Assembly: GCA_963830445.1 (NCBI GenBank)
Contig: CAWHMC010000013.1
Span: 17,242 to 81,241 of the forward strand
Length of the DNA: 64,000 nt
Reading direction: 5' to 3'
Source: an uncultured archaeon
Lineage (GTDB): Archaea; Micrarchaeota; Micrarchaeia; Micrarchaeales; CABMGC01
Part shown: positions 20,314 to 53,315 of the stretch, one piece after another
Position numbering within the stretch: position 1 is the stretch's first letter
Layout: each line of letters opens with the position of its first letter
Position numbers and translations under genes: made by a program
Notes under the pieces: model-generated
Databases searched by the model: none
Seen by the model: the letters and a program-made list of their open reading frames with translations, nothing else
What the model was told of the DNA's origin: nothing

Positions 20314-21408
20314 ATGGAATCAGAAGAACTACGGGGCAGACTGGCACGAGTGTTCGCACAGGCCGAAGGCGTGGAGAAGATACTGCTCATGAACACAGAC
20401 TACGGCGACCCGAACTTTTTTTACCTTACAGGATTCACCAGCGGCCTTTTCGAGTACAGCTACCTGGTAGTCGAGAAGCAGGGCATGACGCTCTTCACCT
20501 CCTCGCTCGAGTACGCTACGGCTAAGGAGCAGGCACCCAAGGGGCTCACGGTCGTACAAATGGACGATGTGAAGAAGTTCAGGGCGGAACTCAAGGAGAA
20601 GCTCGCAGGATTCCGGGTCGGAGTGAACGAGTCGTTCATCCCGTATGCTGCTTACAAGGCCATACGGCGCAGATACAGGCCAAGAAAGATGGTCGACATC
20701 TCAGAGGCCTTCTCGAAGGCGCGATTGGTCAAGAGCGAATATGAGATTGACCTGATAAAGAAGGCGGTCAAGATAACCAAGTGGGCGATGGTGCTGATAC
20801 AGAAGGACCTCAAGGAGGGGATGACAGAACTCCAGCTGGCAGCCAGATTTGATGGGATCTCAGCGGAGATAGGGTCAGAGGGACCGTCTTTCAAGACGAT
20901 AGTCTGCTTCGGCAAGAACGCTGCACTGCCCCACCACTCTCCTGATCACACGAAGCTCAAGTACGGCGACTTCGTTCTGATTGATGCGGGTGCGAAGGTA
21001 AGCAATTACTGCTCAGACATCACGCGGACTGCCCTCTTCGGGGATGACAAGAGCAGGATCCCAGATTACCAGAAGAAGGAGCGCATGCTGAGGATAGTGA
21101 AGGAGGCGCAGGTGAAGGCGATAAAGAAGATAAAGCCCGGAGTGAAAGGAGCCGCAGTCCACAGGGTCGCGCAGAAAGTGATCGACACCGCCGATAAAGG
21201 CATCTACAAGGGAACATTTATACATTCTCTAGGGCATTCTTTAGGAATAGAGGTGCATGATGGACCGGGCTTCTCGCCTGGCGCGAAACAGGTCCTGAAG
21301 CCGGGAATGATAATAACCGCAGAGCCCGGGATATACGTCGAAGGCTTCGGAGGCGTGCGCATAGAAGACGATGTGCTCGTTACCGAGACCGGAACTGAAG
21401 TAATCTGA
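20314..21408 (+). CDS. M24B Xaa-Pro aminopeptidase/dipeptidase
   Basis: LIDAGAKVSNYCSDITRT, HSLGHSLGIEVHDGP, ITAEPGIY and GGVRIEDDV match the M24 metal-ligand motifs. Confidence 0.85.
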   Translation: MESEELRGRLARVFAQAEGVEKILLMNTDYGDPNFFYLTGFTSGLFEYSYLVVEKQGMTLFTSSLEYATAKEQAPKGLTVVQMDDVKKFRAELKEKLAGFRVGVNESFIPYAAYKAIRRRYRPRKMVDISEAFSKARLVKSEYEIDLIKKAVKITKWAMVLIQKDLKEGMTELQLAARFDGISAEIGSEGPSFKTIVCFGKNAALPHHSPDHTKLKYGDFVLIDAGAKVSNYCSDITRTALFGDDKSRIPDYQKKERMLRIVKEAQVKAIKKIKPGVKGAAVHRVAQKVIDTADKGIYKGTFIHSLGHSLGIEVHDGPGFSPGAKQVLKPGMIITAEPGIYVEGFGGVRIEDDVLVTETGTEVI

Positions 21409-21409
21409 G

Positions 21410-21482
21410 GGGGAGTTATGCTAGCTTGGTAGGCTACCACCTTCGGGAGGTGGTGACACGAGTTCAAATCTCGTACTCCCCA
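21410..21482 (+). tRNA. tRNA-Pro (anticodon CGG)
   Basis: Acceptor GGGGAGT/ACTCCCC, anticodon stem CCACC/GGTGG with loop TTCGGGA, T arm ACGAG-TTCAAAT-CTCGT. No encoded CCA. It starts 2 nt after the peptidase stop. The 10:25 pair is U:U. Confidence 0.8.
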
Positions 21483-50337: not shown

Positions 50338-50412
50338 GGGTCCGTAACTCAGTTTGGCTAGAGTGGAAGGCTTTTAACCTTTAAGTCGTGGGTTCAAATC
50401 CCACCGGGCCCG
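50338..50412 (+). tRNA. tRNA-Lys (anticodon UUU)
   Basis: Acceptor GGGTCCG/CGGGCCC, D arm ACTC/GAGT, anticodon stem GAAGG/CCTTT with loop CTTTTAA, T arm GTGGG-TTCAAAT-CCCAC. TATA TTTTATATATTATA lies 20-35 nt upstream. Confidence 0.9.
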
Positions 50413-50423
50413 TATAATAGTTC

Positions 50424-51984
50424 ATGGTCTGGAAGATGGAAAAGAAAACCAAGGAGCAGATGAGTGGAAAGCACTGGTCAGACATACTGGTGGACAGGAT
50501 CGTCGAGCAGAAGAAGCCTCCTTTTGTGATAACTGGCGGGATGACCACCAGCGGTCCCGCGCATATGGGCACGGTGTGCGAGTTCCTGTACCCCTCAATC
50601 ATAACGCAGGTCATGAAAAACAAGGGGCTCCCGGTGGAGTTCCACTTCGTCGCCGACATCTTCGATGCCTTTGATGGACTGCTGCCGGAATTAATGCCCT
50701 ACGAAGCCATGCTGAATGAGGAATTAGGAAAGCCGCTGGTCCATGTCACGGATCCGTTCAAGTGCCACAAATCACTCGGAGAGCATTATCTCGGGCAGGC
50801 CGAGTACATATTGGAGATTTTGGGTCTAAAGGTAGACATAGTCAAGTCAAACGACCTTTATGCTGCAGGAAAGTTTGACCAGTATGCGGTGTTATTCCTC
50901 AAGAATGAGGACAAGACTAAGGAGATAGTTGCGCGCACCTCCATGCGAAAGATAGAGGAGATGAAGAATTGGAGTCCAATAATGCCGATATGTGGAAGGT
51001 GCGGAAGGATTGCAACAACTTCAGTCACTTGGCACAATGACACAGAGTACAAGTATGTATGCAACAAGGATGTGAAGTACACCAAAGGCTGCGGATACGA
51101 GGGATCAAACAAGCTGTCGGAGCATAAGTGGAAGCTCCAGTGGAGACTTCATTGGCCCTCCTGGCAGATGCTCTTCAGTACCAGCGCAGAGGGCAGCGGC
51201 GTAGACCACATGACCGTCGGCGGGAGTGTCACAACCGCAGAAGCAGTTCACAGGGAACTTTTCGAACAGGGAACCGCCGCTCTTCTACAAATATGGATTT
51301 ATACTGGTCAACGGGAAGAAGTCCTCCAAGTCAAAGGGCAACGCGATGAGCGTTGTTGAACTTATTAAATTGATACCGCCAGGGATGCTGAAGTACAAGC
51401 TCATCGAATCCAATCTAGAGCAGGACAAGGACATAGTGCCGTCCGGTGACGCATTGATCGCACTGTATGAGGACGTGGAAAAGATAGCGAAGCTGGAATC
51501 TACTGACTCGCGCGACCTTGAGAAGAAGAAGCTTGCGTTTAACCTGGCCATAGGAAAGCTGCCTTGGAAGGCAGCGTTCGTGGACGTGCTTCTCAACTAC
51601 CAGATATACAAGGACTGGGACAAGGTCGGGGAAGTGGTCGGCGACAAGGCTGGCGCAAAATACCTGTCGAAGTACATTGAGGAGTGGTTGAGGCTTGGAT
51701 ATGAGCCGGAGCAGTACAACTTCTCCGTCAAGGCCGCCAAGATAGACTCATTGAAGGAAGTAGTATCATACTTCAACGGGCAGCTCAAGCCAGAGATGAC
51801 CGACGTCCAGATACACAACCTCGTCTACGAAGTCGCAACTGCGAAGAACGTCAAGGGCGGAGAGCTGTTTGCAGCCCTTTACAAGGCGCTCATCGGGAAG
51901 GAGAAGGGTCCGCGTCTTGGAAAGCTGATTGCATCCATAGGAGTGGGAGAGACGAAGAAGATGCTCGCTTTCGCTGTCAGCTAA
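50424..51984 (+). CDS. lysK: Class I lysyl-tRNA synthetase (frame interrupted near 51258-51271)
   Basis: The N-terminal part is in ORF 50424-51359 (HIGH-like SGPAHMGTVCE, zinc Cys cluster, WRLHWP). The remainder is in ORF 51226-51984 (REPPLFYKYGFILVNGKKSSKSKGN, a KMSKS-like loop). The frames differ by +1 around CTTTTCGAACAGG. Confidence 0.85.
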
Positions 51985-52445: not shown

Positions 52446-52557
52446 TATAAAAGCACGCAGAAGTAAGTTTTATATATTAATCTGGGTTAAATAATAGCAC
52501 GCAAAGCTGGAGACACACGCAGATTTAAATCTTACTGGGTCATATATAAGAGAAACT

Positions 52558-52687
52558 GCCAGGGTGGCAGAATCCGGTAACGCGTACGCCTGGAAAACCA
52601 GAACCTGTCAGCGTATGGCTCTTTGAGCCTTCTGGGTTCAAAAAAAGCCCCTTGAGAAAGAGGTCTCTGAAAATCCCAGCCCTGGCG
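52558..52687 (+). tRNA. tRNA-Ser (anticodon GGA) with two introns: canonical 37/38 (about 52596-52609) and T-loop 59/60 (about 52643-52673)
   Basis: Acceptor GCCAGGG/CCCTGGC. Anticodon stem TACGC/GCGTA encloses 21 nt (CTGGAA+14 nt+A). Long variable arm GGCTC-TTT-GAGCC. T stem CTGGG/CCCAG encloses 38 nt instead of 7 (TTCAAA...31 nt...T). The spliced length would be 85 nt. Confidence 0.8.
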
Positions 52688-52712
52688 TTTTACACTTAGG
52701 AAAGTTGAATCG

Positions 52713-53315
52713 ATGGATGCGAAGAATGCAAAGGCAGAGAGCATAATCAGAATGTCCGGACGGGACATCAACGGCAGTCTCAACATCGTCCGCGGCGTGA
52801 TGCAGATCAAGGGCATCGGCTGGAACCTGGCCAACGCCATAGCTACGTGCTACGAGGCCAAGTACGGGATCTCCGAGAACACGAAGATCGGCACGCTGGA
52901 GGATGCGCAGATCGCCCAGCTCGAGGCGATAATCAAGGAGCCCGCCAAGGCGGGAGTGCCATTATACATGCTTAACAGGAGGAAGGACGCCGAGACGGGA
53001 GCGGACATGCACGTCGTCGGCACCGACCTCATAGTCAAGGTGCGCCAGGACATCGACATGGGCATAAAGATGCAGACCTGGATAGGATCGAGGCACCAGT
53101 ACGGCCAGCGCGTACGCGGACAGCGCACACGCTCGACCGGCAGGACAGGCACCACCGTGGGCGTCATGAAGAAGTCGGCCATAGCGCCTGGAGCAGCTGC
53201 GGCAGCCGAGGAGAAGGGCAAGTCCGGAAGCCCAGGAAAGCCGGGAGCAGCGAAGCCGGCGGCGGGGGCAAAGCCAGAGGCAGCCGCACCAGCAGCAGCG
53301 CCAGCGGCAAAGTGA
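52713..53315 (+). CDS. rps13: 30S ribosomal protein uS13 with Ala/Pro/Lys-rich C-terminal extension
   Basis: RMSGRDINGSLNIVRGVMQIKGIGWNLANAI...WIGSRHQYGQRVRGQRTRSTGRTG, then about 45 low-complexity residues. Confidence 0.9.
   Translation: MDAKNAKAESIIRMSGRDINGSLNIVRGVMQIKGIGWNLANAIATCYEAKYGISENTKIGTLEDAQIAQLEAIIKEPAKAGVPLYMLNRRKDAETGADMHVVGTDLIVKVRQDIDMGIKMQTWIGSRHQYGQRVRGQRTRSTGRTGTTVGVMKKSAIAPGAAAAAEEKGKSGSPGKPGAAKPAAGAKPEAAAPAAAPAAK

Follow-up and report, generated by a model that had tools for sequence, protein, structure and literature searches.

What is encoded at positions 52558-52687 of the 64,000-nt stretch of archaeal DNA analysed here (the window), where the stems of a class II tRNA-Ser enclose an anticodon loop of 21 nt and a T loop of 38 nt? 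The sequence-only reading of this stretch had proposed a tRNA-Ser(GGA) gene with two introns, one of them at a non-canonical position in the T loop. Comparison with relatives and the enzymes found in the genome support the locus as a genuine tRNA-Ser(GGA) gene of Micrarchaeota, with predicted introns at the canonical position 37/38 and at position 59/60 of the T loop. The raw locus is called neither by ARAGORN, with intron mode on or off, in the window or the genome, nor by the Rfam tRNA model, at its gathering threshold or at E<=10 on a 281-nt stretch, as is expected because of the T-loop intron. The only tRNAs that ARAGORN calls in the window are tRNA-Pro(CGG) and tRNA-Lys(UUU).

Read along the plus strand, the locus is laid out as GCCAGGG, TG, GCAGAATCCGGTAACGC, G, TACGC, the 21-nt loop, GCGTA, TGGCTCTTTGAGCCTT, CTGGG, the 38-nt loop, CCCAG, CCCTGGC and G. 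Its parts are the following, with the basis for each assignment in brackets.

52558..52687, plus strand: pre-tRNA-Ser(GGA) gene, 130 nt, from position 1 to discriminator G73; no CCA encoded
52558..52595, plus strand: exon 1, 38 nt; 5' strand of the acceptor stem, D arm, 5' strand of the anticodon stem and loop nucleotides 32-37 (CTGGAA, anticodon GGA) (ARAGORN, spliced sequence)
52596..52609, plus strand: predicted intron 1, 14 nt, AACCAGAACCTGTC, canonical position 37/38 (ARAGORN; orthologue table)
52610..52642, plus strand: exon 2, 33 nt; A38, 3' strand of the anticodon stem, long variable arm, 5' strand of the T stem and T-loop nucleotides 54-59 (TTCAAA) (ARAGORN; orthologues)
52643..52673, plus strand: predicted intron 2, 31 nt, AAAAGCCCCTTGAGAAAGAGGTCTCTGAAAA, T-loop position 59/60 (TTCAAAT restored on removal; orthologues)
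52674..52687, plus strand: exon 3, 14 nt; T60, 3' strand of the T stem, 3' strand of the acceptor stem and G73 (ARAGORN)
52558-64 / 52680-86, plus strand: acceptor stem GCCAGGG / CCCTGGC, with discriminator G at 52687 (sequence)
52585-89 / 52611-15, plus strand: anticodon stem TACGC / GCGTA around the 21-nt loop (sequence)
52617-29, plus strand: variable arm GGCTC-TTT-GAGCC, 5 bp (sequence)
52632-36 / 52675-79, plus strand: T stem CTGGG / CCCAG around the 38-nt loop (sequence)

When both inserts are deleted in silico, ARAGORN calls an 85-nt tRNA-Ser(GGA) with the anticodon loop CTGGAAA, the T loop TTCAAAT and discriminator G, which is the class II product that had been predicted from removal of 14 and 31 nt. 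With the T-loop insert alone deleted, the same tRNA is called with a 14-nt intron, AACCAGAACCTGTC. The stems, the variable arm, the loop sizes and the complementarity of TTCA to TGAA with its AAA and AAT flanks, all described beforehand from the letters, were found again at the same positions. The features of a class II tRNA-Ser are present, namely the long variable arm, the GGA anticodon, G73, a 7-bp acceptor stem and 5-bp anticodon and T stems. The D stem (52567-52583) has just two Watson-Crick pairs and an A12.C23 mismatch. This mismatch occurs in the genus of the present genome, the pair being G-C in many genera and A-T in L014 and L015 (among orthologues L003-L057), and it has the look of a compensatory change that is only half complete. 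The anatomy of a tRNA-Ser(GGA), taken together with the inserts that relatives carry at the same two sites, lies far beyond chance.

Three elements flank the gene on the same strand.

52521..52529, plus strand: putative archaeal TATA-like box, ATTTAAAT, about 30-36 nt upstream of tRNA position 1
52688..52691, plus strand: T4 tract directly after the discriminator, a possible archaeal termination or processing signal
52713..53315, plus strand: ribosomal protein uS13 gene, 25 nt downstream of the tRNA, given for context (ORF list)

A comparison of the relatives' upstream regions finds a TTTAAA(T)-type box at equal distance in most orthologues, the T4 tract is kept in orthologues of the same genus, and an ORF begins shortly 3' of the orthologous tRNA in many relatives. 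Two other candidates at the locus were rejected. A minus-strand ORF (52532-52840, 102 aa) overlaps both the tRNA and rps13 and is considered spurious, and a terminator-like hairpin on the minus strand within intron 2, together with a weak Phe_leader match, is put down to chance, these being bacterial motifs in an archaeal tRNA gene and far below threshold. Elsewhere in the window, tRNA-Lys(UUU) (50338-50412) ends 11 nt 5' of a class I lysyl-tRNA synthetase gene (50424-51984), which is divided between two frames that overlap (50424-51359 and 51226-51984); a frameshift, a sequencing error or recoding could each account for this. The tRNA-Pro(CGG) at 21410-21482 has a weak D stem, its first pair being flagged as non-standard in the Rfam alignment, and so recalls the tRNA-Pro(CGG) of ARMAN-2, whose D arm has a single Watson-Crick pair (PMC3239211).

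How might the T-loop insert be removed? TTCA (52637-40) is complementary to TGAA (52668-71), with AAA (52641-43) following on the 5' strand and AAT (52672-74) forming a bulge between helix and T stem. The elements of the proposed BHB motif are listed below.

52637..52640, plus strand: 5' strand of the putative central BHB helix, 4 bp (T54 T55 C56 A57), followed by the 5' bulge AA|A (52641-43) (orthologue pairing)
52668..52671, plus strand: 3' strand of the putative central BHB helix (TGAA, intronic), followed by the 3' bulge AA|T (52672-74) (orthologue pairing)
52645..52666, plus strand: putative distal helix h' of the T-loop intron, degenerate; A45-T66, G47.T64, C48-G63, C49-G62, C51-G60, T52-A59 and T53-A58, with a GAGA loop (hand pairing and constrained folding)

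The rule that the cut falls after the second bulge nucleotide, applied here, gives 52642|52643 and 52673|52674, which corresponds to 59/60. The distal helix is mismatched at its first, third and seventh positions and, unlike in most orthologues, the pairs adjoining the bulge are mismatched. The 5' cut site would therefore lie in an asymmetric internal loop and not in a clean 3-nt bulge, making the motif hBH/BHL-like. The sequence-only reading had ascribed a relaxed BHB to a weak inner helix; the relaxed motif holds, but the 4-bp central helix is intact and it is the distal h' that is degenerate.

At the anticodon loop, CCTG (52604-07) pairs with C32, G34 and G35, leaving a U33.U mismatch in the central helix (CTGG:CCTG). 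The bulges are A36 A37 | A on the 5' side and TCA (52608-10) on the 3' side, and there is no distal helix, so that this intron would also have a relaxed motif. Both introns of the window gene show the relaxed form of the BHB and fall short of the strict hBHBh', which most orthologues have at the T loop. An anticodon-loop insert of 10-24 nt is found in 47/47 tabulated orthologues, with a central helix C[CT]NG in which U33 is mismatched in 38 of the 47. AACCAG and AACCTG stand in tandem in the region 52594-52607 around the start of intron 1. The first of them pairs perfectly with C32-G35 (CTGG:CCAG) and is the one chosen by the MFE fold. Only the second, mismatched copy lies in the BHB register; four orthologues have CCAG in that register.

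Thermodynamic folding favours other structures over the BHB conformer. The free MFE of the pre-tRNA is -48.1 kcal/mol, versus -39.3 kcal/mol with the cloverleaf and the BHB helices enforced, and neither cloverleaf nor BHB emerges when the entire pre-tRNA or the arms in isolation are folded freely: CTGG:CCAG is preferred in the anticodon loop, and TTCA/TGAA is absent from the MFE structure of the isolated T arm. We judge this outcome to be uninformative rather than contradictory and note it as a caveat, since short, A/U-rich helices are involved and the comparative signal is strong.

That signal comes from 60 relatives, almost all of which have an orthologous tRNA-Ser(GGA); 55 orthologues were parsed. 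The exons hardly differ across these 55 genomes, which span several families, whereas the interiors of the introns have diverged freely. In 47 of the 55, a T-loop insert of 13-43 nt lies at the same site, with the TTCA/TGAA helix, both 3-nt bulges and a variable interior. The remaining eight are free of a T-loop insert, their T loop being exactly TTCAAAT (GGGTTCAAATCCC). One of the eight, L039, lacks the anticodon-loop insert too, and its intronless 85-nt gene is nearly identical to the predicted spliced product. Inserts at the two sites are found in relatives from all sampled families of the order. In another family of the class, outside the order, the orthologues span about 100 nt and match the spliced query from one end to the other, which implies that they carry only the anticodon-loop insert. 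Within genus g32, two species have T-loop inserts of 38 and 43 nt (G041 and G050) and a third has none (G054), which suggests a recent precise intron loss or, alternatively, an unrecognised paralogue.

The central helix of the T-loop motif is kept in 47/47 orthologues with an insert, as four Watson-Crick pairs in 31, with one G-U in 12 and with one mismatch in four. One of the 47 shows a compensatory TCCA/TGGA change in this helix. The orthologue concerned is L012 (G007:C30), whose exon would carry C55 in place of the near-universal U55, compensated in the intron; C55 could be genuine, or it could stem from misassembly, the MAG being 58% complete. The distal helix differs in identity between lineages (GC../..GC, TAAACC/GGTTTA, TAAGCTTA/TAAGCTTA, CAGC/GCTG), and contiguous h' pairs average 3.4 over the 47 orthologues, versus 0.67 in shuffled interiors (maximum 1.17 in 1000 shuffles). 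An anchored 30-column alignment covers the T stem, the central helix, the bulges and the first three h' pairs; being built around the proposed structure, it leans to it, and 95.6% of its cells are paired, versus 84.3% in shuffles (0/500 reach the observed value) and no more than 57% with slid partners. All three aligned h' pairs have changed on both sides, and the covariation of h' is plain in the raw sequences too.

Which enzymes could process such a transcript? The assembly is a 732-kb Micrarchaeota MAG of 16 contigs, with about 54% G+C and an estimated completeness of about 65%. It contains one tRNA-intron endonuclease gene, on contig C5, encoding 385 aa with two Pfam tRNA_int_endo stretches and one tRNA_int_endo_N. 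Residues 12-385 align with residues 14-387 of PDB 4FZ2, the epsilon2 EndA of ARMAN-2, a full-length match with E=1e-153. In ARMAN-2 EndA the catalytic residues are Y236, H251 and K282, and K161 in the ASL loop gives broad specificity (Hirata et al. 2012, PMC3488258). In the alignment with 4FZ2 all three catalytic residues are conserved, as Y233, H249 and K280, and so is the ASL lysine, as K158 in GSYKAADR (K161 in GTYKVSEH). On this evidence the EndA of the genome is predicted to be of the epsilon2 type, a single three-unit polypeptide of ~390 aa (alphaN, alpha, betaC), in agreement with the earlier remark that non-canonical introns go mainly with Thermoproteota and some DPANN/ARMAN-type lineages, whose endonucleases tolerate relaxed BHB motifs. 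Homodimeric assembly and cleavage of BHL substrates are documented for the ARMAN-2 enzyme only (PMC3239211, PMC12397907). The epsilon2 type is one of the two archaeal types known to cleave relaxed BHB motifs outside the canonical position (PMC3239211, PMC3488258), and the ARMAN-2 enzyme cuts a relaxed hBH intron at 59/60 in vitro (PMC3239211, PMC3488258, PMC12397907). By analogy, the two relaxed motifs described above would belong to the substrate class that an epsilon2 enzyme accepts. Nearly all relatives of this EndA in public genomes bear the label Micrarchaeota, Micrarchaeales or Micrarchaeaceae. These labels and the epsilon2 enzyme place the genome in the one DPANN lineage documented for both a broad-specificity endonuclease and heavily disrupted tRNA genes.

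RtcB is the archaeal tRNA ligase, and matches to it are found on contigs C13 and C5. The copy at C13:101486-104281 (L143) lies within an open frame of 1034 aa. Its matches to profile positions 1-50 and 47-426 are separated by ~1.4 kb, apparently an intein-sized insertion. The second copy (C5:143069-144381) is matched in three pieces, each with a different open-frame length, and may be frameshifted.

Is the locus an isolated case in this genome? A genome-wide scan by in-silico splicing, filtered for BHB motifs, passed 82,734 candidates to ARAGORN, and the many artefactual end-splices of intact tRNAs were discarded. The scan recovered the tRNA-Ser(GGA) locus and the following further disrupted tRNAs.

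tRNA-Ala(GGC), with a 24-nt intron at 59/60
C13:101058-101155, minus strand: tRNA-Leu(CAA), with a 13-nt T-loop intron (101073-101085); outside the window
C3:13849-13882: 34-nt D-loop intron of tRNA-Ser(GCT)
C15:~21145-21165: insert of about 20 nt in the D-loop region of tRNA-Leu(TAA), borders approximate
C10:11632-11665: 34-nt canonical intron of tRNA-Ser(TGA), which ARAGORN miscalls as Ala(TGC)

tRNA-Ala(GGC) and tRNA-Leu(CAA) share the T-loop architecture of tRNA-Ser(GGA). The CCA end of tRNA-Leu(CAA) is genomically encoded, unlike that of tRNA-Ser(GGA). An ARAGORN call of 'Ser(CGA) i(38,47)' at C13:133816-133939 looks like a tRNA with a CAT anticodon and a long intron and was not used. No second Ser(GGA) gene was found in this genome (about 65% complete) or in the closed or near-complete relatives searched, so that the locus should be required for reading UCU/UCC.

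From the gene anatomy, the restored canonical tRNA, the enzymes and the pattern of conservation and covariation we infer a path of transcription, cleavage in vivo and ligation, and consider it very probable as a whole: a pre-tRNA-Ser(GGA) with two BHB introns would be cleaved by the epsilon2 enzyme and its exons ligated by RtcB. Transcription, driven by the TTTAAAT box at 52521-29, probably begins a few nucleotides 5' of the tRNA, and the primary transcript would contain two protein-spliced (BHB-type) introns. The epsilon2 endonuclease, presumably a homodimer of the three-unit protein encoded on another contig, would recognise a 4-bp helix with a 3-nt bulge on each strand at either intron and cut between the second and third bulge nucleotides. 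Cutting at 37|38 in the anticodon loop would release 14 nt, while in the T loop the T54-A57/TGAA helix, stacked on the T stem, would set the cuts at 59|60 and release 31 nt. RtcB would then join exons of 38, 33 and 14 nt into the 85-nt class II tRNA, with CCA added afterwards.

The same gene and the same mature product could also arise if the T loop were cut elsewhere in the A runs, at 56/57, 57/58 or 58/59, or if the helix formed in a different register. The A runs (TTC|A|A|A|...AAAA|T) do make four cut positions, 56/57 to 59/60, equivalent in this sequence, each yielding an identical TTCAAAT, so that the assignment to 59/60 draws on the BHB rule and the comparative pattern in addition to the sequence itself. 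In tRNA-Leu(CAA) of the same genome, moreover, the register found by the BHB filter is shifted by one (GTTC/GAAC), implying 58/59. What argues for 59|60 is the variation among the 47 orthologues with an insert: the 5' bulge has a constant AA followed by A, T or C, and the 3' bulge has AA, TA, CA or AG followed by a constant T. This fits the pattern expected under the standard rule if AA and T are exonic and the other positions intronic. Orthologues of the type AAA...TAT permit 58/59 or 59/60 and those of the type AAT...TAT permit 59/60 or 60/61, the sole shared position being 59/60. Cuts at other positions thus seem quite unlikely, and the 59/60 cuts proposed by the sequence-only reading are supported by the BHB geometry, by this bulge pattern and by the TTCAAAT of the insert-free orthologues.

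Might the locus instead be a decaying tRNA pseudogene, whose loops have gained insertions and from which no functional tRNA is made, or might the 31-nt insert be kept, either as an expanded T loop of the mature tRNA or in an RNA with a non-tRNA function? Decay would account for the failure of standard finders, for the A.C mismatch in the D stem, for the degenerate distal helix and for an MFE structure that is not a cloverleaf. All stems are intact, however, and exons that stay near-identical in 55 genomes of several families beside freely diverging introns, a conserved upstream TTTAAAT box and the status of the only Ser(GGA) gene found in the genome and its closed or near-complete relatives are hard to reconcile with decay; the A12.C23 pair, too, is replaced in other genera by G-C or A-T, as in a working D stem. 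We regard a pseudogene as extremely improbable, and retention of the insert as equally so. Excision is deduced here rather than directly seen, and the insert is present in most relatives, as retention would have it. But a 38-nt T loop would destroy the elbow between T loop and D loop, the length (0 or 13-43 nt) and the interior of the insert are unconstrained and the BHB elements alone are conserved, insert-free orthologues have the canonical TTCAAAT, and the cognate class of enzyme cleaves such a 59/60 substrate in vitro (PMC3239211). Both the observation and the interpretation of the sequence-only reading are supported.

Why has the T-loop intron been kept in so many relatives? We put forward only tentatively, and think it rather unlikely, that the 59/60 intron is ancient in Micrarchaeales, having arisen at or near the base of the order (it is absent from the sampled sister-family orthologues), and has been kept by selection and not by drift. 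Possible reasons for selected retention are that the intron blocks the T arm as an integration target of mobile elements or that it is needed in a modification or quality-control step before splicing. If the intron were both ancient and selected, its precise recurrent losses (8/55, including within a genus) would offer a natural system for measuring rates of tRNA-intron gain and loss. The comparison of 55 genomes, with its strict, relaxed and intron-free alleles, could likewise serve as a small data set on the drift, degeneration and loss of BHB introns.

For annotation, the consequence is practical. The only serine tRNA for UCU/UCC found in the genome is invisible to ARAGORN and Rfam, so automated annotation of Micrarchaeota MAGs will report a missing tRNA-Ser. 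The locus reveals no new mechanism, the proposed path being ordinary protein-catalysed archaeal tRNA splicing; it gives one more well-documented example of broad-specificity (epsilon2) endonucleases occurring together with heavily disrupted tRNA genes, a link that is already known. In ARMAN-2, 56% of tRNA genes are disrupted, including 59/60 T-loop introns and multi-intron genes, as described in 2011 (Fujishima et al., PMC3239211). With T-loop 59/60 introns, multi-intron tRNAs and epsilon2 cleavage already known from that organism, the tRNA-Ser(GGA) gene is a well-supported and expected case.

The closest parallel is the pre-tRNA-Cys(GCA) of ARMAN-2 (Candidatus Micrarchaeum acidiphilum), which likewise combines a 59/60 intron with an epsilon2 enzyme in a member of the Micrarchaeota (PMC3239211, PMC3488258). 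Its motif is also a relaxed hBH/BHL, in which the 3' end of the intron pairs with T-loop nucleotides to make the central helix, and its insert of 13 nt has the same length as those of the Ser(GGA) orthologues L011 and L030. The present gene differs in being a class II tRNA-Ser, in its 31-nt insert with a degenerate distal hairpin and in its second, canonical intron, and its cleavage is predicted. The pre-tRNA-Pro(GGG) of ARMAN-2, with introns at 53/54 and 59/60 (PMC3239211, Figure 1C), is similarly a multi-intron gene with one intron at 59/60; both of its introns lie in the T arm and have strict hBHBh' motifs, whereas those of tRNA-Ser(GGA) lie at 37/38 and 59/60 and are both of relaxed form. 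Thermoproteales and other Thermoproteota, with their (alpha-beta)2 EndA, share non-canonical positions, including the T loop, and relaxed HBh'/hBH motifs (PMC4090602, PMC3239211). Their tRNAs contain up to three BHB introns, and intron load correlates with a broad-specificity endonuclease (PMC4090602, PMC3239211). They belong, however, to a different phylum, and their endonuclease evolved convergently, with a CSL loop in place of the ASL loop found here. Within the genome itself, tRNA-Ala(GGC), which would be served by the same enzyme, has the same TTCR/YGAA central helix and AA|T bulges at 59/60; unlike tRNA-Ser(GGA) it has only one intron, and its distal helix (CGCCG.../...CGGC) is better.
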